In this document: positions 5,352 to 62,581 of the stretch, piece after piece
How the letters are laid out: the number at the start of each line of letters is the position of its first letter
How positions within the stretch are numbered: position 1 is the first letter of the stretch
NCBI GenBank assembly: GCA_031459385.1
Contig: JAVKIP010000016.1
Location: 11,286-75,285 of the forward strand
Direction of reading: 5' to 3'
DNA from: Candidatus Fervidifonticultor secundus
Lineage (GTDB): Bacteria > Sysuimicrobiota > Sysuimicrobiia > Sysuimicrobiales > Humicultoraceae
Length of the DNA stretch: 64,000 nucleotides
Notes under the pieces: model-generated
Database searches by the model: none
What the model was told of the DNA's origin: nothing
The model's input: the letters and a program-made list of their open reading frames with translations, nothing else
Translations under genes and position numbers: made by a program

Positions 5352-5981
5352 TCAGCGCTGCTTCATCCCTGCCTGCGCGGCGGCGAAGTAGCGCGCGACC
5401 TCGTCCCAGTTGACGACGTTCCACCAGGCCTGCAGGTAGTCGGCCCGCCGGTTCTGATACTTGAGGTAGTAGGCGTGCTCCCACACGTCTACGCCCAGCA
5501 CCGGCGCCTGCCCGTCCATGATGGGGGTATCCTGGTTCGGCGTGCTCACCACGGCCAGCGTGCCGTCCAGTCCGAGCACGACCCAGGCCCAGCCGCTCCC
5601 GAACCGGGCCAGGCCCGCGGCGTTCACCGCCTCCTTCATCTTGTCCACCGAGCCGAAGGCCGCGCTGATGGCGTCGGCCAGGGCTCCCGAGGGCGCCGCC
5701 GGGCCGCCGGGCTTCATGATCTCCCAGAACATCGTGTGGTTGTAGTGCCCGCCGCCGTTGTTGCGCACGGCGGTCCGGATGCTCTCGGGGACTGCGGTCA
5801 GGTTGGCCAGCAGGTCCTCGATGGACCGGCCGGCGAGTTCGGGCGCGCTCTCCAGCGCCTTGTTGAGGTTGGTGACATAGGTGCCGTGGTGCCGGTCGTG
5901 GTGGATCCGCATCGTCAGCTCGTCGATGTGCGGCTCGAGCGCGTTGTACGCGTACGGCAGCGGGGGCAGTTCGAACGGCAT
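5352..5981 (-). CDS. sodA: Fe/Mn superoxide dismutase, Mn-type residues
   Basis: [33 protein letters not shown]; strong GGAGGAG RBS before ATG at 5981. Confidence 0.97.
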
Positions 5982-6162
5982 GGGCTTCTCCTCCTCCAAA
6001 GCGTCGCGCCCCTGGCGCCGCGCCAGGCCCGGAACTATCCGCGCAGGGGACAGGTGACAGGTTCGCGGCGGGCGGCGGTCCTCCCTGCCTGGGCACGCGG
6101 TGGCCAGGCGGGGACTAAACGCAGGCGCCCCGACGCAGTGTTACAGTAAGTAGGCGAGAGGG

Positions 6163-7840: not shown

Positions 7841-9448
7841 ATGGAACGCATCGCCTCGCGCGTCGATCTACGCAGCCCGGAGTTCGAGGCCAACCGCCGC
7901 CACCACGAGGCCCTGGTCGCGCAGCTGCGCGCGCGTCTGGACCTGGTGCGCCAGGGCGGCGGCGAGCGGGCCCGGCGCCGGCAGCGCGAGCTGGGCAAGC
8001 TGCCCGTGCGCGAGCGCGTCGACTTGTTGCTGGATCCCGGCTCGCCGTTCCTGGAGCTGTCGCCGCTGGCGGCGTGGGAGATGTACGGCAACGAGGCGCC
8101 GGCGGCCGGGATCGTCACCGGCATCGGCCGCGTCGCGGGCCAGGAGATCATGATCGTGGCCAACGACGCGACGGTGAAGGGCGGCACCTACTACCCCATG
8201 ACGGTGAAGAAGCACGTCCGGGCCCAGGAGATCGCCCTGGCCAACCGCCTGCCCTGCGTCTACCTGGTGGACTCCGGCGGCGCGTTCCTCCCGCTGCAGG
8301 CCGAGGTCTTCCCCGACCGCGACCACTTCGGCCGCATCTTCTACAACCAGGCGCGGCTGTCGGCTGCGGGCCTCGCGCAGATCGCGGCCGTGATGGGCTC
8401 GTGCACCGCGGGCGGGGCCTACGTGCCCGCCATGAGCGACGAGGCCGTGATCGTCAAGGGGACCGGCACGATCTTCCTGGGCGGCCCGCCGCTGGTGCGG
8501 GCCGCGACCGGCGAGGACGTCACGGCGGAGGACCTGGGCGGCGCCGACGTGCACGCCCGGCGCTCGGGCGTGGTGGACCACTACGCCGTCGACGACCGCG
8601 ACGCGCTGCGCATCGTGCGTCACATTGTGAGCACGTTGAACCGGCGGAAGGCGCCGGAGGCGGACATCGTCCCGCCGGAGCCTCCTGCCTACGATCCGCG
8701 GGAGCTCTACGGGATCGTTCCCGCCGACCTGCGCCGGCCCTACGACGTGCGCGAGGTGATCGCCCGCATCGTGGACGGCAGCCGCTTCCACGAGTTCAAG
8801 GCGCTGTACGGGACGACGCTGGTCTGCGGCTTCGCCCGCATCCATGGCGTGCTGGTCGGGGTCGTCGCCAACAACGGCGTGCTCTTCGTCGACAGCGCCG
8901 AGAAGGGGGCGCACTTCATCGAGCTGTGCGGTCAGCGCCGCATCCCGCTGGTCTTCCTGCAGCACATCACCGGGTTCATCGTGGGCCGGCAGGCCGAGGC
9001 GGCGGGGATCGCGCGGGCCGGGGCCAAGATGGTGCACGCCGTGGCGACCTGCGGGGTGCCCCGGTTCACGGTGATCATCGGCGGGTCCTACGGCGCGGGC
9101 AACTACGCCATGTGCGGCCGAGCCTACGAGCCCCGCTTCCTGTTCATGTGGCCCAACGCCCGCATCAACGTCATGGGCCCCGAGCAGGCCGCGGGGGTGC
9201 TCGTCACCGTCAAGCGCGAGCAGCTGGCGCGAGAGGGAAAGACCCTGGCCCCGGAGGACGAGGACGCCATCGTGCGGCCGATCCTCGAGAAGTACGAGCG
9301 CGAGGGCAGCCCGTACTACAGCACCGCGCGCCTGTGGGACGACGGCGTCATCGATCCCGCCCAGACCCGCGACGTGCTGGGACTGGCCATCTCGGCGGCG
9401 CTGAACGCCCCGGTCGAGGCCGCCCGGCCCGGCGTCTTCCGGATGTGA
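7841..9448 (+). CDS. liuB: Methylcrotonyl-CoA carboxylase beta (carboxyltransferase) subunit
   Basis: [60 protein letters not shown]. Confidence 0.93.
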
Positions 9449-9452
9449 GCCC

Positions 9453-10259
9453 GTGAGCGACGTGCTCCGCCTCCTGCGCCAGGGCCCCGCTCTGCACGTG
9501 CTGCTGGCGCGGCCGGAGGTCCACAACGCCCTCGACGCCCGGCTGATCGCCGCGCTGACAGAGGCGTTCACGGCGGCCGCGGCGGATCCGGCCGTGCGCT
9601 ACGTGGTGCTGGCGGGCGAGGGTCCGTCGTTCTGCGCGGGCGCCGACCTGGGCTGGATGCGCGCGTCCCTGGACCTCCCCGCTGACGAGAACCGCGCCGA
9701 TGCGGCGCGGCTGGCGGCGATGCTGGACGCGCTCGTAGCCTGCCCGAAGCCGGTGATCGCGTCGGTGCACGGCGCGACGCTCGGCGGCGGCGTGGGTCTG
9801 GTGGCGGCCTGCGACCTCGCCGTGGCGACGCCCGATGCGACGTTCGGCCTCACAGAGGTGCGATTGGGGCTGGTGCCCGCCATGATCTTCCCGTTCCTGC
9901 TGCGCAAGGCCGTCCGGCACCTGGTGCTGCAGGCCGCGTTGACCGGCGAGCGGTTCGGCGTGGCGCAGGCGCAGGCGATGGGGCTGGTCAACGCCGTTGC
10001 GGAGGACCGTGGGGTTGTGATCGCGCGCTGGGCGCAGGCGGTCCTCGCTGCCGGCCCGCAGGCGCTCGGCGGCGTCAAGGCGCTGTTCGCTGCCGTGCCA
10101 CAGCTGTCGTGGGAGGACGCGCGGCGGTACACGGTGGACCTCATCGCCCGCGTGCGCGCCGGGGCGGAGGCGCAGGAGGGGATGCGCGCGTTCCTCGAGC
10201 GGCGTCGGCCGGCGTGGGGCTCCGACGAGACCGGTGCTGCCGGCCCGGGCGGGCGCTGA
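9453..10259 (+). CDS. liuC: Enoyl-CoA hydratase family, likely methylglutaconyl-CoA hydratase
   Basis: RPEVHNA, FCAGADL, GGGVGLVAACD, TEVRLGLVP; operon context. Confidence 0.85.
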   Translation: MSDVLRLLRQGPALHVLLARPEVHNALDARLIAALTEAFTAAAADPAVRYVVLAGEGPSFCAGADLGWMRASLDLPADENRADAARLAAMLDALVACPKPVIASVHGATLGGGVGLVAACDLAVATPDATFGLTEVRLGLVPAMIFPFLLRKAVRHLVLQAALTGERFGVAQAQAMGLVNAVAEDRGVVIARWAQAVLAAGPQALGGVKALFAAVPQLSWEDARRYTVDLIARVRAGAEAQEGMRAFLERRRPAWGSDETGAAGPGGR

Positions 10260-11749
10260 TGTTCTCCACGGTCCTGGTTGCCAACCGCGGCGAGATCGCC
10301 GTGCGGATCATCCGCACCTGCCGGGAGCTCGGCGTCCGCGCTGTGGCTGTCTACTCCGAGGCGGACGCGGCTGCGCCGCACGTGGCCCTCGCCGACGAGG
10401 CGATCCCGATCGGCCCGGCCGAGCCCGCCCGGTCGTACCTGGACGGCGCCCGCCTCATCGACGCCGCGCGGCGCGCCGGGGCGGAGGCGGTGCATCCAGG
10501 CTACGGGTTCCTGGCCGAGGATGCCGGGTTTGCGCGGGCGTGCGCGGACGCCGGCCTGGTCTTCATCGGGCCGCCGGCCGAGGTCATCGCGCGCTTCGGC
10601 GACAAGACCGCAGCGCGGCGCCTGGCCACCGAGGCCGGGGTGCCGGTGGTGCCGGGCGTGGAGGAGGCGCCCGACGACGGCGCGCTGTGGGACGCAGCGG
10701 CGCGCCTGGGCTTTCCGCTGCTGGTGAAGGCGGCTGCGGGCGGGGGCGGACGCGGGATGCGCGTGGTCCACCGGCCCGACGACCTCCCGGCGGCCGTCGC
10801 TGCCGCGCGGCGAGAGGCCCGGGCGGCGTTCGGGAGCGACGCGGTCTTCCTCGAGCGGCTGCTGGAGCGGTGGCGCCACGTCGAGGTGCAGGTGCTGGCG
10901 GACGCGCACGGGGGCGTCGTGCACCTGGGCGAGCGCGAGTGCAGCGTGCAACGCCGCTACCAGAAGGTCGTCGAGGAAGCGCCGTCGCCCGCAGTGGACC
11001 CGCCGCTGCGGGAGGCGCTCGGCGAAGCCGCCGTACGCCTGGCGCGGGCCGCCGGCTACGTCAACGCCGGGACGATCGAGTTCCTGGTCGATGGCCGCAC
11101 GTTCTTCTTCCTCGAAGCCAACACCCGGCTGCAGGTCGAGCATCCGGTCACCGAGCTGGTGGCCGGGGTCGACCTGGTCGCCGCCCAGCTGCGCATCGCG
11201 GCCGGCGAGCCGCTGGCCTGGCGGCAGGAGGATCTCGCCCCGCGCGGGTGGGCGATCGAGGCGCGCGTCTACGCCGAGGATCCCGAGGCGGAGTTCGCCC
11301 CATCGCCCGGTCGCGTGTTGCACCTGGCAGAGCCGCACCTGCCCGGCGTGCGCATCGACTCGGGCGTCGCCGCAGGGGTGGAGATCCCGCCGTTCTACGA
11401 TCCGCTGCTCGCGAAGCTCATCGCCTGGGGCACCGATCGGGAGCACGCGCGGCGCCGCCTGGAGCGGGCGCTGGCCGAGTACGTGATCCTCGGGCCGCGA
11501 ACCAACGTCTCGTTCCTGCGGGCCGTCGTGGGCCATCCCGCGTTCGCGGCGGGCGCGCTGACCACCGGCTTCCTGGCCGAGGAGTTCGCCGGCTGGCGGC
11601 GCCCCGAACCGCCCGAGGCCGTCGTCGCCGTCGCTGCGGTGCTGGCGGCCGTGCACGAGACGCCGCCCGCACCGCCCGGGCGCGGCGTGCGCCCGGGGCC
11701 GACTTGCGCCGACCCCTGGGCGTACCTCACCGGCTGGCGCCTGGGATGA
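10259..11749 (+). CDS. Biotin carboxylase subunit of MCC
   Basis: VANRGEIA, HPGYGFLAE, GGGGRGM, ERECSVQRR, EANTRLQVEHPVTE, FYDPLLAK. Confidence 0.95.
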   Translation: MFSTVLVANRGEIAVRIIRTCRELGVRAVAVYSEADAAAPHVALADEAIPIGPAEPARSYLDGARLIDAARRAGAEAVHPGYGFLAEDAGFARACADAGLVFIGPPAEVIARFGDKTAARRLATEAGVPVVPGVEEAPDDGALWDAAARLGFPLLVKAAAGGGGRGMRVVHRPDDLPAAVAAARREARAAFGSDAVFLERLLERWRHVEVQVLADAHGGVVHLGERECSVQRRYQKVVEEAPSPAVDPPLREALGEAAVRLARAAGYVNAGTIEFLVDGRTFFFLEANTRLQVEHPVTELVAGVDLVAAQLRIAAGEPLAWRQEDLAPRGWAIEARVYAEDPEAEFAPSPGRVLHLAEPHLPGVRIDSGVAAGVEIPPFYDPLLAKLIAWGTDREHARRRLERALAEYVILGPRTNVSFLRAVVGHPAFAAGALTTGFLAEEFAGWRRPEPPEAVVAVAAVLAAVHETPPAPPGRGVRPGPTCADPWAYLTGWRLG

Positions 11750-12399
11750 GTACGCGCGTCGTGCTGCAGGTCGGCACGCAGACGCTCACCGCTGAGGTGC
11801 GGGGCGATTTCGCCGCGGCGCACGAGCGCTCCGCCGGGCCTCTGTCTGCGGCCGGACACCCAGCCCTCGCCCAGGGCGTACGGGCCGAGGTCGTGCTGGC
11901 CGGGGGGACGACACCGCTGCGCGTGGCCCTGCAACAGCTGGGACCGGGCCGGTACCTGGCGACCGTCGACGGGCAGACCCTGCTCGTGCACCACGCCGCC
12001 TGGGGCACGGTGCACCATGTGCACGCCGCGGGCGCGGACTTCACCTTCCGCCGCGTGCACCCGCACGCCCCGGACGCGGCTGCGCTGGGGGGTGGCGATG
12101 CGCCACCATACGTCCCCGTCGCGTCGCCGCCGGCGGGCATCACGGCCGGTGCGACACCGTCGCCTGCAGCCGGCGCCACCCGCCAGGCGCGTGCCCCCAT
12201 GCCCGGCGTGGTGACACGCGTGCTGGTGGCCGAGGGGCAGGCCGTCGCCGCCGGCCAGCCGCTCTGCGTCCTCGAGGCCATGAAGATGGAGACCCTGGTC
12301 GAGGCGCCAGCCGCCGGGCGAGTGGTGCGCATCACCGTCGCGCCGGGGACGCAGGTCGACGGCGGGGCGGTACTCGTGGACCTCGAGGCGCCGGCGTGA
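11746..12399 (+). CDS. Biotin carboxyl carrier protein
   Basis: APMPG...EAMKME biotinylation motif after a Pro/Ala linker; ATGA overlap. Confidence 0.9.
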   Translation: MSTRVVLQVGTQTLTAEVRGDFAAAHERSAGPLSAAGHPALAQGVRAEVVLAGGTTPLRVALQQLGPGRYLATVDGQTLLVHHAAWGTVHHVHAAGADFTFRRVHPHAPDAAALGGGDAPPYVPVASPPAGITAGATPSPAAGATRQARAPMPGVVTRVLVAEGQAVAAGQPLCVLEAMKMETLVEAPAAGRVVRITVAPGTQVDGGAVLVDLEAPA

Positions 12400-13316
12400 G
12401 CCTGCGCTATCCGGGCAGCGTGCGCGTGGTCGAGGTCGGGCCGCGCGACGGCCTGCAGAACGAAGCCGGCGTCGTGCCGGTCGACGCCAAGGTGCGCTTC
12501 GTCGAGCTGCTGGCCGACGCGGGGCTGCCCGTCATCGAGGTCGGCGCGTTCGTGCGCCCCGACCGCGTGCCGCAGATGGCCGACACCGACCAGGTGCTCC
12601 GTCGGCTTGCCCCCCGCCCCCACACCACCTACGTCGTCCTGGTGCCCAACCGCCGCGGCCTGGAGCGAGCGATCGCAGCCGGCGCCCGCACCGTCGCCGT
12701 CTTCACGGCCGCCTCCGAGGCGTTCGCCCGGGCCAACATCGGCATGTCGGTGGACGCATCCCTCGACGTCTTCCGCGACGTCGTTCGGGAGGCGGCGGCG
12801 CAGGGGATCGGCGTCCGCGGCTACGTCTCCACGGCCTGGTGGTGCCCGTACTCGGGCCCCGTGGCCCCGGAGGCCGCGCGCCGGGTGGCCCTGGCCCTGG
12901 CCGAGATGGGGTGCGACGAAGTGGGGCTCGGCGACACTATCGGCGCGGCCACGCCCGGCGAGGTGGCGCGGCTGCTCGAGGTCGTACTGCGCGACCTGCC
13001 CGCCGGGCGGCTGACGGTGCACTTCCACGACACGCGCGGCACCGCCCTGGCCAACGTCCTGGCCGCGCTGGACGCCGGGGTGGCCACCGTGGACGCGTCC
13101 GCCGGCGGACTCGGCGGGTGCCCGTTCGCGCCCGGCGCGCTCGGCAACGTCGCCACCGAGGACTTGCTCTACATGCTGCACGGCATGGGCATCGCCACCG
13201 GCGTCGACCTGGAGGCCGTGCGGGCGGCGGCGCGCTACATCGAAGGCGTCCTGGGCCGGCCGCTGCCCGCGCGATACCTGCGGGCCGGGCCGCCGGGCCC
13301 GGCCGCGCCGCGCTAG
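12396..13316 (+). CDS. liuE: Hydroxymethylglutaryl-CoA lyase
   Basis: EVGPRDGLQNE, GDTIG, HFHDTRG, GGLGGCPFAPGA.GNVATED. Confidence 0.95.
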   Translation: MSLRYPGSVRVVEVGPRDGLQNEAGVVPVDAKVRFVELLADAGLPVIEVGAFVRPDRVPQMADTDQVLRRLAPRPHTTYVVLVPNRRGLERAIAAGARTVAVFTAASEAFARANIGMSVDASLDVFRDVVREAAAQGIGVRGYVSTAWWCPYSGPVAPEAARRVALALAEMGCDEVGLGDTIGAATPGEVARLLEVVLRDLPAGRLTVHFHDTRGTALANVLAALDAGVATVDASAGGLGGCPFAPGALGNVATEDLLYMLHGMGIATGVDLEAVRAAARYIEGVLGRPLPARYLRAGPPGPAAPR

Positions 13317-13546
13317 CAATCCGTGGGCGCACGCGCACCGTCGCCGCGCATGCCCCGGCGGTGGGGCGGTGCAGGCCGCAGCGTGTAGTCGGCCTTTCGG
13401 TACGTGGCCCGCACCCCGCAGTGGGGGCAGGTGTGGTAGTTCGCGGCGAGCGTGCCACGCTCGAACGATGCGCGGTCCATCCGCAGCCCGCTGTCGAAGG
13501 GCCGGCGGCAGGCCGTGCAGGAGACCCACAGGGCGAACCCGGCCAC
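13313..13546 (-). CDS. Small zinc-ribbon protein
   Basis: CTAC...CPHC pairs in a 77-aa ORF directly downstream of the 13553-13912 gene. Confidence 0.65.
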   Translation of the reverse strand: MAGFALWVSCTACRRPFDSGLRMDRASFERGTLAANYHTCPHCGVRATYRKADYTLRPAPPHRRGMRGDGARAPTDC

Positions 13547-13552
13547 GGCCGA

Positions 13553-13912
13553 TCACGTCCCGGGCCGGGTGGCCCGGTAGCGTGCCACGTCCTCGGCGCG
13601 CCAGATGCGCCGGTGACCCGATGCGAACAGGGGCGCGGGGAAGTCGGGGCGCGCGGCCACCTCGTCCAGGAAGCGCCGGGGCGGCAGGCCGAACTGCTCT
13701 GCCGCCTCCACCGCACTCACGATGGGGATACCCTCGGCGACGGCGCGGCACACGGCGGCGATCAGCGAGTCGGAGGCCTGCGGGCGGCTGAGGACCAGGC
13801 GCAGCGCGGAGATGCCCCGCGGGTGGGCCTGCTTGATGAGGTTGCTGTAGTGCCGCAGGTCCTCGGTGTAGCCCCGCAGGTGAGTCAGGACCTTCGCGTC
13901 GTCTCCCAGCAT
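13553..13912 (-). CDS. Hypothetical protein with C-terminal AlpA/excisionase-like HTH
   Basis: C-terminal SAVEAAEQFGL...FPAPLF.SGHRRIWRAEDV resembles AlpA/MerR-like HTH; start could be GTG 13924. Confidence 0.6.
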   Translation of the reverse strand: MLGDDAKVLTHLRGYTEDLRHYSNLIKQAHPRGISALRLVLSRPQASDSLIAAVCRAVAEGIPIVSAVEAAEQFGLPPRRFLDEVAARPDFPAPLFASGHRRIWRAEDVARYRATRPGT

Positions 13913-13994
13913 GGGCTCGGCCACGCCACCTGAGTTCGCGGAATAGACCCTCCGTGCCTCTCGTTGGCGCGGGAGGGAGAGCAGGAGGGACGCG

Positions 13995-14705
13995 ATGCCG
14001 TTACTCAACGACCAGGATGCGGCCTTCGTTCGCAAGCGGCTGCGCGAGGAACTGGAGCACGACGTGCGGCTCGTGTTCTTCGCGCCGAGCCTGGGCGGAC
14101 TGGCGGTGCCCGGCGCGGACTGGGAGATGGCCGAGTACACCCGGCGGATCTTGCAAGAGTTTGCCGCGCTCTCGGAGCGCGTGCACCTGGAGGAGCACAG
14201 TCTGGCGGGCGAGCCCGAGCTGGCGCGGCAGTATGGCGTCGCGCGCACGCCGGCCACGCTCATCATCGGCGCCGAGGACTACGGCGTCCGCTTCTACGGC
14301 GCGCCCGCCGGCTACGAGTTCGTGACCCTCCTGGAACTGGTGCTGGACGTCTCGAAGGGTCGCGCCCCGATCGCCGAGGCGACCCGCGCGGCCCTGCAGG
14401 CGCTGCCCGGCGACGTCCACCTCCAGGTCTTCGTCACGCCCACCTGACCCCACTGCCCTCGGGCGGCCAGGCTGGCCGCCGATCTCGCGATCGCGTCGCC
14501 GCGCGTCCGCGCCGACATCGTGGAAGCCAGCGAGTTCCCCGACCTGGCCCAGCGCTACAACGTCTATGCCGTGCCCAAGACGGTCATCAACGACGTCCGC
14601 GAGGTGGTGGGCGCCGTGCCGGAGGCGCAGCTGGTCGCCGCGCTGGCGGAGGCCGTGCGGCCCGGGGCAGCGGCGTCTGCAGCGTCCGACGTGCCCTCTG
14701 CCTGA
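13995..14705 (+). CDS. Protein-disulfide oxidoreductase (two thioredoxin folds, AhpF-N/PDO-like), probable selenoprotein with TGA at 14445-14447 read as Sec
   Basis: ORFs 13995-14447 and 14520-14705 are in the same frame; read-through gives VFVTPT-U-PHC-PRAARLA...EASEFPDLAQRYNVYAVPKTVIND, so TGA sits at the first Cys of the CPxC site. Confidence 0.85.
14462..14480 (+). promoter_or_regulatory. Putative bacterial SECIS hairpin
   Basis: GGCGGCCA-GGC-TGGCCGCC perfect stem with G-rich apical loop starting 14 nt after the TGA. Confidence 0.65.
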
Positions 14706-42676: not shown

Positions 42677-43633
42677 ATGCCGGCAGCACATCTCGTGGGA
42701 ATCTTCCCGCGCTCGGAGCGCGTGGTCGAGCTGAGCCGCGCCGTGGACCGCGGCCGCGCCACGCCCGACGAGCTGGCCACGGCCGTCGCCGAGGACGAGC
42801 GGGCGGTCATCGCCCTGCAACAGGAGGCCGGGCTCGACTACGTGCTGGACGGCCTGCTGCGGTGGCAGGACCTGCTGCGGCCGATTGCCAGCCATACCCC
42901 GGGCATGTTCCCGGGCGGCATCGTGCGGTGGTTCGACAACAACACGTTCTACCGGCGGCCGGTGATCACGGGCCCCCTGGAGCCGACCGGACGCGCGGTG
43001 CTGGCGGTGGTCAACCTGCCGGCGCTGGCCGGCCTCCGGTGGAAGGCGGTGCTGCCATCGCCGTTCGCGCTGGCAGCCCTGGCCGACAACCAGTCGGGCC
43101 GGACCTTCGACCAGGTACTGGCCGACTGCAGCGCCGTCGTGCGGGCCGAAGCGCAGGCGCTGGTCGCGGCCGGCTGCGCCTACGTGCAGTTCAGCGACCC
43201 CGCGCTGGTGACCCGCGCGGCGCCTGAGGACGTGGGCCGCGCGCGCGCCGCGCTGGAGCGCGCGGTAGACGGGCTCGGGGTGCGCACGGCGCTGCATACC
43301 TTCTTCGGCAACGCAGCGGCCTGGCTGGACGATCTCGTGCGGTTCCCGGTGGACGAGATCGGCGTGGACCTGTACGCGTGGGAGGCCGACGGCGTGCGGC
43401 CCGCCGCGCGCGGCAAGACCGTGCTGGCCGGGGCGCTGGACGGGCGCAACTCGCTGCTGGAGGACGTCGCCCTGCTGGTAGATCAGGCCGTGCAGTTGTG
43501 GCGCGACCTGGGCGCGGACGACGTGGCCCTGGTACCCAACTGCGACCTGGAGTTCCTGCCCTGGGACGTGGCGGTGGCAAAGACGCGCCGCCTGGGCGAG
43601 GCCGCGGCGGCCCTGCGGGCGCAGGGGAGGTGA
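42677..43633 (+). CDS. Split MetE N-terminal-like subunit (non-catalytic barrel)
   Basis: GIFPRS, QQEAGLDYVLDGLLRWQD, RWFDNNTFYRRP, HTFFG, LDGRNS, PNCDLEFLP; lacks the HxC zinc motif. Confidence 0.8.
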   Translation: MPAAHLVGIFPRSERVVELSRAVDRGRATPDELATAVAEDERAVIALQQEAGLDYVLDGLLRWQDLLRPIASHTPGMFPGGIVRWFDNNTFYRRPVITGPLEPTGRAVLAVVNLPALAGLRWKAVLPSPFALAALADNQSGRTFDQVLADCSAVVRAEAQALVAAGCAYVQFSDPALVTRAAPEDVGRARAALERAVDGLGVRTALHTFFGNAAAWLDDLVRFPVDEIGVDLYAWEADGVRPAARGKTVLAGALDGRNSLLEDVALLVDQAVQLWRDLGADDVALVPNCDLEFLPWDVAVAKTRRLGEAAAALRAQGR

Positions 43634-43638
43634 GCGAC

Positions 43639-44751
43639 GTGGCGACCAAGCTGTTCCCGACGCAGGAGATCGGCAGCCTGGCCAAGCCGGGCTGGCTGGT
43701 CCGGGCGACCCGCGGGCAGCCCGCGACCGACGCCGACCTGGCGGAGATCGACCGGTGGGCGCCGGTGCTGGGCATCGAGGGGGTCGACGACCTGAAGGCG
43801 CTGCTGCGCGCGCCGTCGCCCGACCGCGAGCGGGTGCGCGACTGGGCGGCGCTGTTCGCGATCCGGTTCCTGGAGGCTGCCGGGCTCGACGTGGTCTACG
43901 ACGGCGAGGCCCGCCGCGTCGAGATGTACGAGTACGCGGCCCGGCGCATTCACGGCTTCCGCTTCTACGGGCACGTGCGGTCGTTCGACAACAAGTACTA
44001 CCGGAAGGCCGCGGTGGTGGACCGCGTGCGCCTGACCGAGCCCTTCCATGTGGACGAGCTGCGGTTCGTGAAGTCGGTGGCGCGCCGGCCCGTGAAGGTT
44101 CCGGTGACTGGCCCGTACACCCTGGCCGACTGGTCGTTCAACGAGTACTACCTGCGGGCGCACGACGGCGGGGCGCGGGACCTGAAGCGCCGCACCTGGG
44201 AGGCCAAGCGAGCGTTCACGCTGGATCTGGCGCGGGAGGTGCTGAACCCTACGCTGCGGGCGCTGGCCGCGGCGGGCGCCGACTGGATTCAGGTCGACGA
44301 GCCGGCGGCCACCACGCATGCCGACGAGGTGCCGATCCTGGTCGAGGCGTTCAACGACGCGGTGCGCGACGTGCCGGCCAAGATCAGCATCCACATCTGC
44401 TACAGCGACTACCGGCTGCTCTACCCGCACATCCTCACGATGCGGGTGGACCACCTGGCCCTGGAGTTCAAGAACACCGGCGACTACAACATCGTCTCGA
44501 TCTTCAGGGACTACGGGGACACGCGGGAGCTGGGCCTGGGCGTGCTCGACGTGCACTCCGACCTGATCGAGACGCCCGAGGAGATCCGGGACAAGCTGCT
44601 GGACGCCGCCCGGGTGCTGGGCCCGGAGCGGATCTGGGCCAACCCCGACTGCGGACTGCGCACGCGAACGTGGGACGTGGCGTTCGCCAAGCTCCGCAAC
44701 CTGGTGGAGGGCGCGCGGCTGGCCCGCGAAGCGGTGGGCGCGGCCCGCTGA
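43639..44751 (+). CDS. metE: Cobalamin-independent methionine synthase, catalytic (core) subunit
   Basis: TQEIGSL.KP, DGE.RR, TGPYTL, QVDEP, zinc ligands HIC / E / NPDCGL. Confidence 0.88.
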   Translation: MATKLFPTQEIGSLAKPGWLVRATRGQPATDADLAEIDRWAPVLGIEGVDDLKALLRAPSPDRERVRDWAALFAIRFLEAAGLDVVYDGEARRVEMYEYAARRIHGFRFYGHVRSFDNKYYRKAAVVDRVRLTEPFHVDELRFVKSVARRPVKVPVTGPYTLADWSFNEYYLRAHDGGARDLKRRTWEAKRAFTLDLAREVLNPTLRALAAAGADWIQVDEPAATTHADEVPILVEAFNDAVRDVPAKISIHICYSDYRLLYPHILTMRVDHLALEFKNTGDYNIVSIFRDYGDTRELGLGVLDVHSDLIETPEEIRDKLLDAARVLGPERIWANPDCGLRTRTWDVAFAKLRNLVEGARLAREAVGAAR

Positions 44752-56013: not shown

Positions 56014-57183
56014 CTACCGCATGTTTCCCGTGTGGCCCAGCGAGTAGCGGCCGGGCTGCGGCCAGTAGGTGAGACCGTGGGGGCCGGCCCCGACAGGGAT
56101 ACGGGCCAGCAGGCGTCCCGTGTCCGTGTCGAACGCGTACACTTCGCCGTCGTAGCGGCCCGACAGCCACAGCTGCCGCCCGTCGGCTGACACGTTGCCC
56201 ATGTCGGGGCTTCCTCCGCCGGGCACCGGCCAGAGGGCCACCACGCGGCGCGCGACGGGGTCGACCACCGCCACGCTGCCTGGCCCGCGGCGGCCGCCGG
56301 TCACCGTGGTCCACCCCCGGTTGGCGACGTACAGGAAACGGCCATCGCGGCTGGGATAGACGCCGTGGGCGCCGGTACCCGTTGCCAGGAAGCCCACCGC
56401 GCGCAGCGGCTCGCCCTTGACGAGGTGCACCCCACCGCCGACCATATCGGCCACGACGAAGAGGCGCCCATCAGGCGACAGCCGCACGTCCTGCGGCATG
56501 CCGCCCAGCTCCAGGACACCCAGGAGTCGGTGCGACACCGTGTCCAGCTTGACGAGCCGCCCGGCGAACTCGCAGGTGAGGAGCAGGAAGCGTCCGTCGG
56601 CCGAGAAGTCGAGGTGGTTCGCACCTGGACACGGCACGGGCACCGAGGCTTCCAGCGCCATGGTCTGCGGATGGCGGAAGTCGAGGCGGTGCCGGGCCTC
56701 GGCCACGATCATGGCGAACGCTCCGTCGGGGGTGAAGTAGAGGTTGTAAGGGTCGTCCACCGGCACCGGTCGGCCGCCCTGTCCGGTGACCGGATCGATG
56801 GGCGTGAGGGTGTTGCTCCCGTTGTTGTTGACCCACAGTGTGTGGAGGTCATAGGACGGCACCACGTGCTGCGGACTCTTGCCCACGCGGACCTTGGCGA
56901 TGGTGCGGAACGTGGCAGGATCGATGACGCTCACGGTGTCGGACAGACTGTTGGGCACGTAGACCCGGGCTGGCAGGCCGGCAAGCGCGGCACGCAGGCG
57001 GCCTGCACCGGCTTCCCGGTAGACGTTGCGAGGATCGGTGACCGGCGGCATGCCAGGCAGCGGGGCCGCGCGAGGCCGAGGTGCGGCCGGGCGCACCCCT
57101 GGTGCAGTAGGACGCGCTGTTGGCCGGCCAACGCAGGCGCCGGACAGCACGGCGGTGAGCAACACGAGAAACGCCACCCGCAT
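56014..57183 (-). CDS. YVTN/YncE beta-propeller lipoprotein
   Basis: Lipobox LSGAC; repeats YVPNSLSDTVSVID, WVNNNGSNTLTPID, YVANRG, GAGPHG. Confidence 0.85.
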   Translation of the reverse strand: MRVAFLVLLTAVLSGACVGRPTARPTAPGVRPAAPRPRAAPLPGMPPVTDPRNVYREAGAGRLRAALAGLPARVYVPNSLSDTVSVIDPATFRTIAKVRVGKSPQHVVPSYDLHTLWVNNNGSNTLTPIDPVTGQGGRPVPVDDPYNLYFTPDGAFAMIVAEARHRLDFRHPQTMALEASVPVPCPGANHLDFSADGRFLLLTCEFAGRLVKLDTVSHRLLGVLELGGMPQDVRLSPDGRLFVVADMVGGGVHLVKGEPLRAVGFLATGTGAHGVYPSRDGRFLYVANRGWTTVTGGRRGPGSVAVVDPVARRVVALWPVPGGGSPDMGNVSADGRQLWLSGRYDGEVYAFDTDTGRLLARIPVGAGPHGLTYWPQPGRYSLGHTGNMR

Positions 57184-57394
57184 GCCAGTATCGCACCCCC
57201 CTCTTCGCCCGCCTCTTCGGCGTGCCGCAGCGGCCATTCCTCCGGCCCGTGCGCGGTCTCTCCCGGGCCTGTCCCGCGGACGCCTGCCTCCGCAGCCCCG
57301 GGTCCTGCCGGGAGCTTGCAGAACCCCCGGCACCGTGGTTGCAATGGATGCAGGGGGCTGCAGGATCGTCGGGGTCTACGGGAGGTGATGAGGA

Positions 57395-57574
57395 ATGGTC
57401 TGGGCTACCGTCGTCAACGCGTTGGTGGGGATCTGGTTCATCATCTTCCCCTACGTCTCTGCCCTCACCGCGCGGCCGAACGTCGCCTGGACCTCCGTCG
57501 TCGGCGGGCTCATCGCGCTGGTGCTCAGCGCCTGGCTGGCGTTCAGCGTTCTGCCCAAAGAGGCCCACGCCTGA
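57395..57574 (+). CDS. Single-repeat (59 aa) paralog of the SPW protein at 54487 (not in ORF track)
   Basis: MVWATVVNALVGIWFIIFPYVSALTARPNVAWTSVVGGLIALVLSAWLAFSVLPKEAHA*; near-identical DNA to both ends of 54487-54834 with an in-frame 168-bp deletion. Confidence 0.75.
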   Translation: MVWATVVNALVGIWFIIFPYVSALTARPNVAWTSVVGGLIALVLSAWLAFSVLPKEAHA

Positions 57575-57677
57575 GACCGTTCCCGGCGACCTCAGGCCTC
57601 CCCCACCATCTGTGGCGCCGGCTTCCTGGAACCCTGCACGCTCTCCCCGCGTAGAAATTGATCAGGGGGTGAAGGTC

Positions 57678-58187
57678 ATGTCGTCGGGTCGACGGGCAGC
57701 AGCGTCTATGGTGGCACTGGCCGGGGTGCTGGTGGCGACGGGCGTTTTCCCGGCCACAATTTCGGCACATCACGACCACCGCTGGCGGCCTGTGGGACAC
57801 CGGGCCGTCGTGCGGGTGGTCGGACGTGACGAAGTGTTCTGCACTTCCCGGAGCCTCCTGGCGGGCTCGATCGCGGTACCCGCGCACCGTTGCTTCCGGC
57901 TCGCACTGGTGCGCCGGCAGCAGCGGGTGTTCCTCGCGTTCCTCGAGCCGACGGTTGTGGTGTCGGCAGGGCACGTGGTGATCGTGACCCGACCCGTGGT
58001 GCGGCCCCGGATCCTCTTTCTCGTACCGTTCGACGAGGTTGACGACCTGGGCGATGACGTCCTCCCGGTGCTGCCGGTGCACGGCGCGGTGCTGGTGCCG
58101 GTGCGCGTCGTGGACCTGGGCCCACGGCTGACGATTACGGTGGTGGACTTCCCGCGCCTGTTCGTCACGTTCTCGGTACCGCTGTAG
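57678..58187 (+). CDS. Hypothetical exported protein
   Basis: RBS-like GGGGGTG, signal-like N-terminus, Val-rich beta-type body with two Cys. Confidence 0.6.
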   Translation: MSSGRRAAASMVALAGVLVATGVFPATISAHHDHRWRPVGHRAVVRVVGRDEVFCTSRSLLAGSIAVPAHRCFRLALVRRQQRVFLAFLEPTVVVSAGHVVIVTRPVVRPRILFLVPFDEVDDLGDDVLPVLPVHGAVLVPVRVVDLGPRLTITVVDFPRLFVTFSVPL

Positions 58188-58221
58188 GGCGCCGGTCGGT
58201 GGCGCCGCAGGTCGCCGGTGT

Positions 58222-58415
58222 AGTGGGCGCATGGACCCGGCTGCGATCCCAATGCGCTAATTTAGATCCGCAGCCGACCATTCCGGGGTCACCTGCCCTC
58301 CACCTTCAAGCGTCTCGAATACGACGGTGTCGCCGGGCTGGATGCGTAGGCGCGGTGGGTGGGCATTGTCCCAGAACGCGTGGGGCTGCATATCGTCCAA
58401 GTGATGCGTGGTCAT
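58222..58415 (-). pseudogene. Acetamidase/formamidase N-terminal fragment
   Basis: MTTHHLDDMQPHAFWDNAHPPRLRIQPGDTVVFETLEGGGQVTP...* (stop at 58257-58259), then WDRSRVHA in a shifted frame; GGAGG RBS. Confidence 0.6.
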
Positions 58416-58474
58416 TTGAATGCGACCTCCCATAGCACTGCAGCACGCGCCTACGAGCGGCTCCCAGAGCGGCG

Positions 58475-58532
58475 GCCCAACGATCGCGCTCAGCGGCCGG
58501 CTCGGCCGGCCGGCTGAAGCGCGCTGTTAGAC
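58475..58532 (-). mobile_element. attC site 1 (58 bp)
   Basis: Minus strand: GTCTAAC-AGCGC-GCTTCAGC...GCTGAGC-GCGATC-GTTGGGC; extra base in L''; the hicA stop lies in R''. Confidence 0.88.
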
Positions 58533-58730
58533 AGGCCCTTCGCCTCCGACTTCCGGCACTGAAAGGCCACGGCAGATTTTCCGAGCCAGGAGATTCGAGA
58601 TCTCGCTGTGGCCTGGTACCGCCTCGACGGCACCAGTTGCCAGATTCGTCCAAAGCGAATGCGACTTCCCTTCCCGCTTCAAGTGACAACCAAGCCTCCT
58701 GAGATGCCGAAGCAGGTCGCTTCGCTTCAC
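58527..58730 (-). CDS. hicA: HicA-family toxin
   Basis: KRSDLLRHL...G....REGKSH......VPGH.EI...LARKI. Confidence 0.88.
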   Translation of the reverse strand: MKRSDLLRHLRRLGCHLKREGKSHSLWTNLATGAVEAVPGHSEISNLLARKICRGLSVPEVGGEGPV

Positions 58731-58942
58731 CTCACGACAACCTTCTCCCGCACTGCGCCGGGCGGCACTCCGCGCAGGCCGTCCTTACGCCTATCCTCCA
58801 GGATGAGCGCGATCGCGTCTGCTAGGCTGCGCCTCGCCTCCGCTTTAGTTCGCCCCTGTCCGTTGGCTCCCGGGATCTCAGGACAGTAGGCGACGTACCA
58901 CCCGTCGTCACGCTCGATGACGGCTGTAAACTCGTTCCGCAT
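58727..58942 (-). CDS. hicB: HicB-family antitoxin (short)
   Basis: FTAVIERDDGWYVAYCPEIPGANGQGRTKAEA...L.DAI; GTGA overlap with hicA. Confidence 0.9.
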   Translation of the reverse strand: MRNEFTAVIERDDGWYVAYCPEIPGANGQGRTKAEARRSLADAIALILEDRRKDGLRGVPPGAVREKVVVR

Positions 58943-58999
58943 CCGCTTTTCTGGATGCCGCTTTTTCACTCTCACTTCGGATCACCCTTGTTCAGCTCT

Positions 59000-59018
59000 G
59001 TCTAACGCTCCGGTTCAG
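59000..59018 (-). mobile_element. Truncated attC site 2 (R'/L' half only)
   Basis: GTCTAACGCTCCGGTTCAG matches 61079-61097 at 18 of 19 positions; the other arm is missing next to the IS end. Confidence 0.7.
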
Positions 59019-59032
59019 TCAGGTTGTGTGGT

Positions 59033-60402
59033 AGAGTCCGTTGAGAATTGGGGGAAGCGGCCACCAGCATAGTGAATGGAATCCTTGGCCGAAAGCCACA
59101 CAGCATGCAGAAAGGAAACCGCTCCCGTGCCTACAGTACTACGGGTGCCCAGTGGTCGCCAGGGGGGTGCTCCGGCCTTGCCGGAGGATTTCAATGCACG
59201 CGTCGAGGGTGATCAAGGCGCTGATTCCCCTGGGGATGGCGGCCGTCGAGGATGCCTTGCAGGAGGAGGTCGAGCGGCTGGCCGGGCCGTTCTACAAGCG
59301 GCAGGGGGCCAGCCGGGGTACGTGCGCTGGAGCACCGAGCGCGGCTCGGTCTACTTGCTGGACCAGAAGGTCCCGATCAACTACCAACGGGTGCGGGACC
59401 AGCGCCGGCGGGCCGATGTGCCCCTGGAGACGTATCGGACGCTGCAGCAGCCGCGGGCATTGGACGAAGGCTTGCTGCGGCGCGTCCTGCACGGGCTGAG
59501 TTGCCGGCGGTACCAGGAGTGCGCGGAGACCGTGCCTGAGGCGTTTGGGCTGAGCGCATCGTCGGTCTCCCGCCGCTTCATCCGGGCGAGCGAGCGCAAG
59601 CTGCGGGCCTTTCAGGCGCGGCGGCTGGAGTAGTATGACCTGGTGGCGCTGGTGCTGGACGGGAAGACCTTCGCCGACGACGAGATGGTCATCGCGTTGG
59701 GGGTGACCGTCAAGGGCCACAAAGTGATCTTAGGCTTTGTACAGACGGCGACGGAGAACAAAGTGGCCTGTGCGGCGTTCCTGCGGGAGTTGGTGGCACG
59801 CGGGGCTGCGCCACCAGGACGGACTGCTGGTAGTCCTAGACGGCAGCAAGCGGCTGCGGCAGGCGGCGCGGGAGGTCTTGGGGGAGGCCGCGCAGATCCA
59901 GCGCTGTCAGTGGCACAAGCGTGAGAACGTGGTGTGCTACCTTCCCAAGGGGTAGCAGCCCCGCTGGCGCGCCAAGTTGCAGGCGCGTATGAGCAGCCGA
60001 CCTACGAGCAGGCGAAAGGCGAACTGGACAAACTCCAGCGGGAACTGCGCCTGCTCAATGAGAGCGCGGTACGCAGCCTCCAGGAGGGGCTGGAGGAGAC
60101 GCTGACCCTGCATCGCCTGGGCGTGTTCCGAGGAGCTGGGGCTGAGCCTGACGACCACGAACATCCTGGAGTCGATCATGGCGCAGGTGGAGGATCGGGT
60201 CGGGAAGGTGGACCGCTGGCAGAACAGTTCGCAGAAGCAGCGCTGGCTGGCCACAGCCTTGTTGGACATCGAGCCACGGCTGCGCCGGATCAGGGGCTAT
60301 CGTGCGTTGCCGAAGTTGCGGCAAGCGCTTCAACGCACGATGAGGAAGGAGGCGACGGCTGCCTGATGATGCCCCCGCTTCCCTCAATTCTCAACGGACT
60401 CT
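59033..60402 (+). mobile_element. Degenerate IS256-family element
   Basis: 28-bp terminal IRs AGAGTCCGTTGAGAATTG(G/A)GGGAAGCGG at 59033-59060 and 60375-60402 (1 mismatch); no target duplication seen. Confidence 0.85.
59127..60366 (+). pseudogene. IS256 transposase pseudogene
   Basis: Homologous to the 62631-63890 transposase (LVLDGKTFADD, QRCQWHKRENV) but split over several frames, with an in-frame TAG at 59631-59633. Confidence 0.9.
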
Positions 60403-60546
60403 GGCATTGACACACTTGCCGCTTACCTTCAGCCCAATGGAGCCAAACATCTTGCCGACCGCCACGTTGCGGTCAGCAGCGAAGGCGTCGATGATCGACG
60501 CGAAGAGCGGGTGGCCGTCGGGCGACTTGGCCGGTTCCTTCTTCAT
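60403..60546 (-). pseudogene. TfoX/Sxy N-terminal-like gene truncated by the IS
   Basis: MKKEPAK...GKMFGSIGLKVSGK then runs into the IS IR. Confidence 0.6.
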
Positions 60547-60595
60547 CTTGGCTCCTTCGCTGGGCCCAGTCACGACGCGCGCGGGCCGATGCTCA

Positions 60596-61060
60596 TCAAT
60601 GATCCCCACGCCCCTCAACGTGCTCCTTCAATCCAGTGAGGATGGCAATTTGAGTCTGATGGAATTTCCGACGGACGAACGGGAGCATCAGACGCACGAA
60701 CCAGCGGCGCGGCCGAAACACGCTGGTAGCAGTGACCAGGGTTTCGTTCGACGCCTCGGGTTTCAGCAGGAAACCCGCAGTCCAGTCCGACACCATGCCT
60801 GAGAACCCGGTGCTGTCCCTGTCGATGCGCCACAGGATTCGGCTCTCGTGCTCGCAGGCCGAGCACCGTTCCTCAGTATGGCCGTCCTTCTTACCAATGC
60901 GGATGACACATCGACGCACCGCGCCTTGCTCGTGCTCGCCGCTGATGCTCGTCACGAATGGATGCCACGCCGCATGGACGGCAGGGTTCTTGATCGCCTG
61001 CCAGACCGTGCTGATGGGCGCCCGTACGACCATCTCGTCACGGATGTCTACTTCCGCCAT
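60596..61060 (-). CDS. SRPBCC (polyketide cyclase-like) family protein, cassette gene
   Basis: VRAPISTVWQAI......WHPFV...GAVRRC; AAGGAGG RBS immediately after attC3. Confidence 0.8.
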   Translation of the reverse strand: MAEVDIRDEMVVRAPISTVWQAIKNPAVHAAWHPFVTSISGEHEQGAVRRCVIRIGKKDGHTEERCSACEHESRILWRIDRDSTGFSGMVSDWTAGFLLKPEASNETLVTATSVFRPRRWFVRLMLPFVRRKFHQTQIAILTGLKEHVEGRGDH

Positions 61061-61078
61061 ACTGAACCTCCTTCAAGC

Positions 61079-61142
61079 GCCTAACGCTCCGGTTCAGCGG
61101 CGGGCCGCGCAGCGGACCCTCCGCTGCAACCGGTTGTTAGGC
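61079..61142 (-). mobile_element. attC site 3 (64 bp)
   Basis: Minus strand: GCCTAAC-AACCGGTTGCAGCGG...CCGCTGAACCGGAGC-GTTAGGC; extrahelical base on the gene-proximal arm. Confidence 0.92.
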
Positions 61143-61544
61143 CTTGCTCGCTGTATCCAACATTGGCTTGAAGCCGCCAGCGATAAGCCGCTTTCCGTCG
61201 AACACTGGCGGCCGGTTTTCGAACTGCATTCGAGGATCGCTGGTCACCTTCTCCATGCCTGCGTCCCTGGTGGCTTTGTCTGGCCACTCGACAAAAGACA
61301 CCACAACCGTCTCGTCTGCACGTGCGTCTGCAACCCGAGGGAAAGTGGCGTAGTTTTCGGACCCCAACCTTGCTGTGCTGGCATGGTACGTAGAGGCATC
61401 GGGCCCAGCGTCATCCAGCCAGCACTCAACCACCCGCGTCGCGCCGTACTCTCGTAGTACGTCGGCAGAAATGCGAGCCAGCTCTTCATACGCGGCCCTG
61501 TTCTCGATAGGAACCGGTGCGAGGTAGCAGTCAATGTAGGTCAT
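61137..61544 (-). CDS. DUF1428 (YbaA-like) protein, cassette gene
   Basis: YID....PVP..NRAAY...EYGATRVVECW...ETVVVSFVEWPDKATRD...DPRM...PVFDGKRLI.GGF; stop within R''. Confidence 0.88.
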   Translation of the reverse strand: MTYIDCYLAPVPIENRAAYEELARISADVLREYGATRVVECWLDDAGPDASTYHASTARLGSENYATFPRVADARADETVVVSFVEWPDKATRDAGMEKVTSDPRMQFENRPPVFDGKRLIAGGFKPMLDTASKA

Positions 61545-61563
61545 TCATGGTCCTTTCCGCGAG

Positions 61564-61605
61564 GCCTAACGAGTGGCGGCTGTCGGCTTGAGCCGCATGT
61601 TGGGC
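61564..61605 (-). mobile_element. attC site 4, internally deleted (42 bp)
   Basis: Minus strand: GCCCAAC-ATGCG-GCTCAAGCCGAC|AGCCGCCACTC-GTTAGGC; central hairpin and part of L' absent. Confidence 0.7.
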
Positions 61606-61692
61606 GGGCCTACACAACCCACGATTCGATCTCGAGTATGAACGTTGCTAATCTTGACCTCGCTTACCTGCAGAGCAGATGGAAGCGGCCAC

Positions 61693-62079
61693 CTAATTTC
61701 CTACCGCTTGCACAATTGACCATGCGATCGCGAATATGATGACTAGCCAGACGACAATCACCATAATCGCTCCAGCTCGGCTGATTGGTTCGCCTTGCCG
61801 CAATAACTCTTCAGCCTGCTGCCGAGCCTCAACTATTACTGCAGGCGGGATCATCTTCAAGGCAACAACGATACCCAAGGGTGTAATCACCAAGTCGTCG
61901 AGATAGCCAAGAACAGGAATAAAGTCTGGAATCAGGTCTATGGGGCTAAAAGTATGCGCTACCACCAGCCCCAGAAATGCCTTGGCGTACCAAGGAACTC
62001 GTGGATCACGAGCAGCAATGTACAGAGCATAGGCTTCTCGTTTCAGGGTACGGGCACGATCCTTAAGCCTGGCAATCAA
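61693..62079 (-). CDS. DUF1232 (YkvA) membrane protein, cassette gene
   Basis: DPRVPWYAK...SPIDLIPDFIPVLGYLDD; TTG start with AAGGAG RBS; visibly AT-richer. Confidence 0.9.
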   Translation of the reverse strand: MIARLKDRARTLKREAYALYIAARDPRVPWYAKAFLGLVVAHTFSPIDLIPDFIPVLGYLDDLVITPLGIVVALKMIPPAVIVEARQQAEELLRQGEPISRAGAIMVIVVWLVIIFAIAWSIVQAVGN

Positions 62080-62117
62080 GGCAACTCTCCTTGAGATTAC
62101 AAGTGTACGACTAGCCC

Positions 62118-62208
62118 GCCCAACGACCGGGCGCTGAGCCGCGGCGGCTGGGCGTCTCGCTCAACACCCGCATCTTGAATGCCGGCGGGCTCCAGCGCCT
62201 GGTTAGGC
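62118..62208 (-). mobile_element. attC site 5 (91 bp)
   Basis: Minus strand: GCCTAAC-CAGGC-GCTGGAGCC...GGCTCAGC-GCCCGGTC-GTTGGGC; the DUF2442 stop lies in R''. Confidence 0.85.
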
Positions 62209-62448: not shown

Positions 62449-62453
62449 GGTCC

Positions 62454-62581
62454 TCACTCCAATGGCGCGATGCGCTTCAGCGGCTGCCCCTGCTGCGCCA
62501 GTTCCCAGTTCTCCAACAATTCTGCCTTGTGCAACTCAGCCCATTCAAGCACGAGCCGCAATGCTCGGGGCGACAACTCGC
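62454..62581 (-). pseudogene. 3' part of a DUF4160 gene interrupted by IS256
   Basis: (G)ELSPRALRLVLEWAELHKAELLENWELAQQGQPLKRIAPLE*; the frame rejoins 63998+ once the IS and one target copy are removed. Confidence 0.8.

Follow-up and report, generated by a model that had tools for sequence, protein, structure and literature searches.

Reading frame of the oxidoreductase gene

The stretch of DNA analysed here, 64,000 nucleotides of contig JAVKIP010000016.1 from Candidatus Fervidifonticultor secundus (hereafter the window), carries on its forward strand a gene for a protein disulfide oxidoreductase (PDO) whose frame contains an internal TGA, followed at a short distance by a hairpin. We evaluated the TGA as a candidate selenocysteine (Sec) codon and the hairpin as a candidate selenocysteine insertion sequence (SECIS).

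The open reading frame (ORF) starts at ATG 13995 and runs for 150 codons to the TGA at 14445-14447, which lies in the context VFVTPT-U-PHC-PRAARLAA (U marking the TGA). Past this codon the same frame remains open for 85 sense codons, up to a second TGA at 14703-14705, giving 150 + 1 + 85 = 236 residues. An earlier note on this DNA had reported an in-frame TGA within TPT-U-PHC, 85 further codons and a perfect hairpin 14 nt on, and inspection of the sequence confirms each of these.

The G+C content of third codon positions (GC3) is 0.96 ahead of the internal TGA and 0.92 past it, and no other TGA of the window has coding-type GC3 both ahead of it and past it. Sites with a coding signal on both sides of a TGA were also sought in 22 close loci of relatives (272,733 bases), in which 11 PDO TGA sites were flagged together with 8 others that resemble in-frame gene junctions or antisense frames; in the window the PDO site alone was flagged. 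Elsewhere TGA serves as an ordinary stop: it ends 18 of the 37 high-GC3 ORFs in the window, and it ends the PDO gene itself.

Conservation of the TGA and of the downstream frame

For DNA from relatives, GTDB species representatives were scanned once, which gave 584 confirmed matches; the best 80 of these were retained (L numbers below). Protein relatives are the best 120 matches from a collection of 5.8 billion proteins. An active-site regular expression fitted 76 of the 80 loci; L046, L063, L078 and L079 did not fit and were left out of all counts, and two further TGY rows, which are neighbouring glutaredoxin-like genes, were likewise excluded. The window and 22 close loci (L001-L022, 59-76% identity) make up a clade of 23 sequences.

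At the active-site column 40 of the 76 loci have TGA and 36 have TGC or TGT. TGA is present in all 22 close loci, where the frame then stays open for 76-102 codons until a TGA, TAG or TAA, and in all 23 sequences of the clade, window included, an ATG stands exactly 150 codons ahead of the TGA. The protein matches divide in the same manner. Ninety-four of the 120 break off at VT[PT]T, directly ahead of the TGA (91 with a length of exactly 150 aa, the remaining three with 139, 151 and 157 aa), and the other 26 are full-length, all with CxxC at the Sec position (22 CPYC, 4 CPHC). The pairing of Cys with TGA among homologues, which the earlier note had proposed to look for, is thus present at both levels (40 TGA and 36 TGY loci; 26 of 26 full-length proteins with CxxC). 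That note had also named, as the pattern that would speak against a selenoprotein, close relatives all with TGC or TGT and no hairpin; the relatives display the reverse, with TGA in 22 of 22 and a hairpin that is kept and covaries. One full-length protein, P0003, shares 67% identity with the window protein, lacks an N-terminal CxxC and reads TPT-C-PHC-PRAARLAA; by its sequence it is a direct Cys counterpart, of the same subtype as the window protein.

The codons past the TGA behave as protein-coding sequence. The fraction of the 23 sequences that have the majority residue is 0.823 downstream of the TGA against 0.733 upstream. Codons 152-155 (P-H-C-P) are kept in 22-23 of the 23 (P152, C154 and P155 in 23 each) with varied third positions (CCG/CCC/CCA, TGC/TGT and CCG/CCC/CCT), and there is no start codon between the TGA and PHCP. 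This pattern indicates that the downstream frame is under protein-level selection and is translated.

In a quick maximum-likelihood tree the window falls inside a 23-row clade composed entirely of Sec-type sequences, with a support of 100 in the SH-like approximate likelihood ratio test (SH-aLRT). The best tree requires at least eight changes between Sec and Cys, of which at least three are forced by supported branches. The Sec form of the PDO family also occurs in at least three other lineages, in genomes labelled Deltaproteobacteria and Acidulodesulfobacterium (loci so titled: L027, L028, L043, L049, L050, L057, L065, L070 and L071), Acidobacteriota (L052, L060, L062, L064 and L067) and Chloroflexota (L042, L047, L054 and L069).

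Two associations with the Sec residue were considered. At the x2 position the 77 PDO genes comprise 36 with Sec-H, 4 with Sec-Y, 1 with Sec-Q, 35 with Cys-Y and 1 with Cys-H; a coupling of Sec with His was dropped, there being just three independent pairs on supported branches and CPHC in 4 of the 26 full-length Cys proteins. The N-terminal CxxC is missing from 28 of 41 Sec rows versus 2 of 36 Cys rows, a pattern that traces to two clades, and we make no claim of a coupling between Sec and its loss, since those two clades account for it.

Protein family and predicted fold

With Cys in place of Sec, the 236-aa protein matches the NCBIfam model TIGR02187.2 ('PDO_seleno_TRX') at 226.6 bits (cut-off 185, E 2e-67), residues 6-219 aligning with profile positions 2-208 of 209, and Pfam Thioredoxin_3 covers residues 142-217 (2.3e-18). 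Sequence matches in the PDB are led by 1a8l (4.9e-34), followed by 1j08, 2ywm and 2ayt (about 1e-33 to 1e-32) and, at about 1e-10, by 1zyn and 1hyu. An AlphaFold2 model built from a 37-row alignment (predicted local distance difference test score 92.4, predicted template modelling score 0.88) has two tandem thioredoxin folds. In this model U151 sits between strand 141-147 and helix 154-167, which places the redox motif at the helix start of the second fold. A Foldseek search with the model returned 1a8l at a template modelling (TM) score of 0.84 (E 6.9e-22 over 234 columns), the Aquifex PDO at 0.82-0.83 and AhpF N-terminal domains at 0.68-0.79. The profile, PDB and Foldseek matches together bear out the earlier assignment to a PDO or AhpF-N-terminal-like family.

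The column of U151 is aligned with the CPYC or CPHC of Cys homologues. In the first fold the N-terminal CxxC is absent: WEMA lies opposite the CQYC of 1a8l in the PDB alignment, and such a CxxC is found in 0 of the 23 clade members versus 34 of 36 Cys-type loci. The window protein thus lacks the CxxC in fold 1 that characterizes the two-site PDO of archaea and Aquifex, and since that site is gone, the sole redox site is U151-P-H-C154 in the second fold.

We rejected an identity as AhpF. The score against TIGR03140 is far under its cut-off (57.1 bits vs 502.9), as is that against TIGR03143 (76.8 vs 687.65), and the protein has no FAD module and only 236 aa. The public label 'AhpF' on the truncated ORFs is a misnomer, because no FAD/NAD(P)H thioredoxin-reductase-like module is fused to them.

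The hairpin downstream of the TGA

The hairpin at 14462-14480, GGCGGCCA-GGC-TGGCCGCC, has a perfect 8-bp stem and begins after a 14-nt spacer (14448-14461) past the TGA, inside codons R156-A162 of the RAARLAA helix. As a bare 19-mer it folds at -15.3 kcal/mol (z = -3.18, a stability that none of 200 shuffles reached). Each strand of the 64 kb has 37 perfect 8-bp hairpins whose loop is 3-9 nt long, and 7 of the 576 TGA triplets on the forward strand have such a hairpin at SECIS distance. In a single sequence the hairpin is therefore suggestive, with a chance expectation of about 1%, and the real weight comes from its conservation across genomes.

In the alignment of the 23 clade sequences (A2), 97.8% of the 184 cells of the stem are paired. 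Pair 28-44 is G-C in 20 sequences and C-G in three (L009, L016 and L019), a switch for which an Ala->Pro and an Ala->Gly replacement occur together. At 27-45, the outermost pair, eight sequences have C-G, eight G-C, one U-A and two G-U or U-G. These two stem pairs covary, and the covariation score of the hairpin is 0.175 against 0.050 in shuffles, none of 500 of which reaches 0.175, and the score falls to 0.042 or less when the partner is slid by 1-3 columns. RNAalifold recovered the same helix unprompted.

Synonymous sites give a further view of the same element. Among 72 conserved columns of fourfold or sixfold degenerate codons, whose mean third-position entropy is 1.17 bits, the third position is invariant in four only, codons 157-160 (GCG GCC AGG CUG), which constitute the hairpin core; none of 100,000 resamplings was as low. 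Arg159 is AGG in all 23 sequences, a codon used for 33 (2.5%) of the 1316 arginines that 31 window genes encode. The Cys-type locus L073, which encodes the same AARLA peptide, does so with GCG GCG CGC CTG GCG and has no such hairpin. Taken together, these results are strong comparative evidence that the hairpin is under nucleotide-level selection and of SECIS type. A SECIS placed inside the active-site helix appears, moreover, to have visibly dictated the protein sequence, in that the coupled Ala->Pro and Ala->Gly replacements keep a base pair.

The element also agrees with published descriptions of bacterial SECIS. According to the review PMC13188914, the bSECIS model has a loop of 3-9 nt, a stem of 4-16 bp, a distance of 16-37 nt from UGA to loop and a minimum free energy (MFE) of -7.5 or less, and its loop carries G at the two leading positions, as N1-G-[G|U]-N-N2. 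With a 3-nt loop, an 8-bp stem, 22 nt from UGA to loop and -15.3 kcal/mol, the window hairpin lies within all four ranges given in that text, and its loop fits the pattern as A-GG-C-U. The earlier comparison with the apex of the Escherichia coli fdhF SECIS holds on K-12 DNA, where GCA-GGUC-UGC at 18 nt stands against CCA-GGC-UGG at 22 nt in the window. Both are in-coding hairpins just 3' of the UGA, with C-G and A-U closing pairs and a loop that starts with GG. They differ in that the fdhF loop has 4 nt rather than 3, and in that the window's upper stem pairs perfectly, is rich in G+C and shows no bulged U in the prediction. Other Sec clades have different small hairpins, with G-first triloops 14-18 nt past the UGA (MFE folds only), and L042 (Ktedonobacterales) has the GCGGCCAGGUUGGCC core in common with the window clade.

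Decoding of the UGA and alternative explanations

We consider it very probable, from these comparative data, that 13995-14705 is one gene for a 236-residue cytoplasmic PDO in which the UGA at 14445-14447 is decoded as Sec by means of the SECIS at 14462-14480. The reading of the earlier note, a 236-aa Sec-containing oxidoreductase, thus gains support from the TIGR02187.2 score, the conserved TGA, the translated downstream frame and the selected hairpin. By analogy with bacterial Sec decoding, the hairpin would recruit SelB-GTP-Sec-tRNA(Sec) while the UGA occupies the ribosomal A site; SelB with Sec-tRNA(Sec) would bind the hairpin apex, Sec would be delivered to the UGA, and translation would continue to the stop at 14703. 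As in other members of the family, Sec151 could be the attacking nucleophile at the helix N-terminus and form a selenenylsulfide with Cys154. This would be reduced by an NAD(P)H-dependent flavoenzyme of the thioredoxin reductase (TrxR) type encoded elsewhere, and electrons may be passed to disulfide or peroxiredoxin-type substrates. We infer from the gene itself that a sel system is encoded elsewhere in the genome.

Three other explanations have to be weighed. Were the UGA read through by other means (a near-cognate Trp or Cys tRNA, a suppressor tRNA, or use of UGA as a sense codon throughout the lineage), the downstream frame would be translated all the same, and the sequence by itself does not distinguish which residue is inserted, no Sec machinery having turned up in the 64 kb. 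Yet UGA ends 18 of 37 ORFs and only one UGA has a coding signal on both sides, its position is exactly that of the Cys replaced by Sec in the catalogued UxxC selenoprotein family, and a conserved, covarying SelB-type hairpin stands at the right distance, which plain read-through would not need; we regard this explanation as improbable. A genuine stop would leave a 150-residue product without any redox cysteine, the N-terminal CxxC also being gone, and with its second thioredoxin fold cut after the first strand. What follows would have to be a relic or a separate small ORF (e.g. from GTG 14520, 61 aa), but protein-level conservation (0.823) extends over the 85 downstream codons, in which synonymous change is free, and PHCP right after the TGA is kept in 22-23 of 23 sequences with no start codon ahead of it. 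ORF finders do read the gene as ending there, as does public annotation, in which 94 of the 120 best matches stop at VT[PT]T, and the 64-kb window yielded no Sec machinery; on the whole we hold a genuine stop to be very improbable. An error of sequencing or assembly, with TGC or TGT as the true codon, needs only one base to change, but the same TGA recurs in 22 of 22 independent species-level assemblies and 94 truncated proteins, which come from several sources, terminate there. Because of this recurrence, a read error, the earlier note's own proviso, is effectively refuted.

Several observations weigh against Sec decoding through this hairpin or limit what can be said of it. Five of the eight stem pairs never vary and are therefore uninformative either way, the outermost pair is unpaired in 4 of the 23 sequences, and the hairpin encodes a conserved helix, so that part of its conservation is at the protein level. 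The folding signal weakens in wider context (dinucleotide shuffles): z is -1.00 for 14445-14484 (28 of 200 shuffles as stable) and -0.33 for 14440-14500 (66 of 200), and the MFE fold of the latter 61 nt omits the hairpin. Across loci, the segment from +4 to +60 has a mean z of -0.31 in 41 Sec and -0.23 in 36 Cys sequences (mononucleotide shuffles; Mann-Whitney p = 0.92). By this measure the E. coli fdhF SECIS, a proven one, does not stand out either (z = +0.10), and the folding z-score is therefore uninformative and was dropped as evidence either way. The locus may serve as an example in which a thermodynamic z-score fails and the freezing of synonymous sites, together with covariation, reveals a SECIS.

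The Sec machinery itself was not encountered near the gene. Searches of the 64-kb window (NCBIfam models on 54 ORFs, ARAGORN, Rfam at gathering thresholds and tblastn) found no selA, selB, selD or tRNA-Sec, nor did ARAGORN and tblastn find any in the 22 close loci, in which as much as 20 kb around the PDO gene was covered. ARAGORN was run on the window and the 40 Sec-type loci, and tblastn with E. coli SelA, SelB and SelD on the window and all 80 loci (1.25 Mb). The sole tblastn match was a SelD-like stretch in L073 (18075-18647, reverse strand; 40% identical to residues 1-191 of E. coli SelD, E 6e-42), which comprises the N-terminal half only. A Cys-type PDO gene is found some 8 kb away from it, and the locus belongs to an Armatimonadia metagenome-assembled genome (MAG), a different lineage. 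The absence of sel genes is weak counter-evidence, because only 64 kb of the genome is visible. Likewise, no gene for TrxR, peroxiredoxin or AhpC adjoins the PDO gene in the window (NCBIfam), and none for TrxR, peroxiredoxin or Sec machinery was seen among the nearest 74 of 134 predicted flanking ORFs of L001-L022 (Pfam); with no TrxR or peroxiredoxin gene adjacent in the window, the redox partner is a guess.

Features of the locus and gene neighbourhood

Table 1. Features of the PDO gene and its hairpin, in window coordinates
Feature	Position	Strand	Basis or remark
Shine-Dalgarno-like AGGAGGG	13983..13989	+	5 nt ahead of the ATG; read from the sequence
Whole predicted selenoprotein gene, 236 codons (Sec as codon 151) plus terminal TGA	13995..14705	+	Frame, TIGR02187.2, orthologues, GC3
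Degenerate N-terminal redox site W43-E-M-A46	14121..14132	+	Opposite the CxxC of Cys-type homologues
UGA as probable selenocysteine (U151)	14445..14447	+	TGA in 23 of 23 clade sequences; opposite the first Cys of CxxC
Putative active-site motif U-P-H-C, residues 151-154	14445..14456	+	Start of helix 154-167
Putative SECIS-type hairpin, stem 14462-14469 with 14473-14480, loop GGC 14470-14472	14462..14480	+	Energy, covariation, frozen synonymous sites
True stop codon TGA	14703..14705	+	Orthologues stop at varying distances, 76-102 codons

Read from the sequence, no hairpin at SECIS distance follows the terminal TGA. A GCCGG-GUG-CCGGC hairpin stands right after this stop, too near for a SECIS. 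From the terminal TGA the frame leads without a further stop to the GTG start of fabF (14748), and the same arrangement is seen in L001 (10697); this in-frame link is probably a coincidence, the chance of a shared frame being one in three.

In the window and in L001-L003 and L006-L008 the PDO gene lies between fabF on one side and, on the other, a 3-hydroxy-3-methylglutaryl-CoA (HMG-CoA) lyase gene with small divergent ORFs. A thiolase-like ORF replaces the HMG-CoA lyase beside the PDO gene in L004 and L005, and in most other close loci a peptidase M20 gene follows it. The small upstream ORFs of the window (13313-13546 and 13553-13933, both on the reverse strand) are divergent from the PDO gene; one product has 77 aa and two CxxC pairs, in the manner of a zinc ribbon, the other has about 126 aa, and neither has an NCBIfam match at 1e-5. 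Unnamed small ORFs occupy the same place in L001-L008. Further upstream, 7871-13313 on the forward strand is a leucine/HMG-CoA catabolism cluster with genes for a carboxyltransferase, an enoyl-CoA hydratase, a biotin carboxylase, a biotin carrier domain and HMG-CoA lyase.

The window also has, 8 kb upstream of the PDO gene, a gene for a Mn/Fe superoxide dismutase (5355-6032, reverse strand), and in L014 a gene with a superoxide dismutase domain lies about 1 kb upstream of the PDO gene, which may point to a loose oxidative-stress neighbourhood. Elsewhere in the window, cobalamin-independent methionine synthase is encoded at 42701-44748 (forward strand) as two adjacent ORFs, which match N-terminal-type and C-terminal-type MetE models and are followed by metG. 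The coding signal is weak from 57000 to 64000, a region with an IS256-family transposase gene (62634-63680, reverse strand) and an IS256 fragment (59304-59630, forward strand).

Relation to known systems and significance

A UxxC selenoprotein PDO family has been catalogued and is listed for Carboxydothermus hydrogenoformans and Symbiobacterium thermophilum (PMC1794560, PMC13188914); a published example is ABB15282.1. The window protein agrees with this family in the NCBIfam model, above whose cut-off it scores, in the UxxC position of Sec and in having a single Sec. It differs in its lineage, which is nearest to Candidatus Sysuimicrobiota, and its clade is without the N-terminal CxxC. Since the family is catalogued and the NCBIfam short name itself contains 'seleno', this kind of protein is already known.

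The PDOs of Pyrococcus furiosus, P. horikoshii and Aquifex aeolicus (1a8l, 1j08, 2ayt and 2ywm) likewise have two thioredoxin folds (TM 0.82-0.84, E 5e-34 to 8e-33), and their C-terminal site lies in VFVTPT-C-P-Y-C-P, much like the VFVTPT-U-PHC-P of the window. They have Cys rather than Sec, CPYC rather than UPHC, and a second, N-terminal CxxC (CQYC in 1a8l) where the window protein has WEMA. The N-terminal domain of AhpF (1zyn, 1hyu, 4o5q and 5h29) resembles the window protein in its tandem thioredoxin fold with a single CxxC in fold 2 (TM 0.68-0.79). In AhpF, however, this domain is fused to an FAD/NADH thioredoxin-reductase module, whereas the window protein stands alone at 236 aa with no adjoining AhpC or TrxR.

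The earlier description as a cryptic selenoprotein therefore stands in part: the gene is indeed split by ORF callers, as in 94 of the 120 matches, but its family was already catalogued as a selenoprotein. No new mechanism or protein family is revealed. What is modestly new is the lineage (Sysuimicrobiota/CSP1-3-like) and the wide truncation of public ORF calls.

Of the relatives that have names, the nearest belong to Candidatus Fervidifonticultor and Ca. Calidihabitans, which are placed in the phylum Candidatus Sysuimicrobiota (formerly CSP1-3), an uncultivated phylum of soils and hot springs with the named families Humicultoraceae and Kaftiobacteriaceae. The clade further includes MAGs that carry the label Armatimonadota or 'Bacillati bacterium ANGP1'. 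A search for selenocysteine in Sysuimicrobiota or CSP1-3 found no mention in the searchable literature (the sole match, to 'Selenomonadales', was irrelevant), and the main text of the paper describing the phylum (PMC11604079) has no word beginning with 'seleno'. On balance, though with a good deal of reserve, we favour the view that the Sec-PDO is a clade-wide selenoprotein of the Sysuimicrobiota lineage.

As the UGA is very probably a real Sec codon, gene callers cut the gene short, and if the Sec-PDO is indeed characteristic of the lineage, current annotations of the phylum would systematically truncate its gene. The gene being truncated in most public calls, where it appears as 'hypothetical protein' or 'AhpF', redox inventories of the MAGs concerned miss an oxidoreductase with its active site. 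If the clade-wide view holds, the phylum would decode UGA as Sec, and a redox protein with a single site would depend on selenium, a hint for the design of cultivation media. To judge from its sequence, the gene would mark a widespread uncultivated lineage as one that decodes Sec and hence requires selenium.

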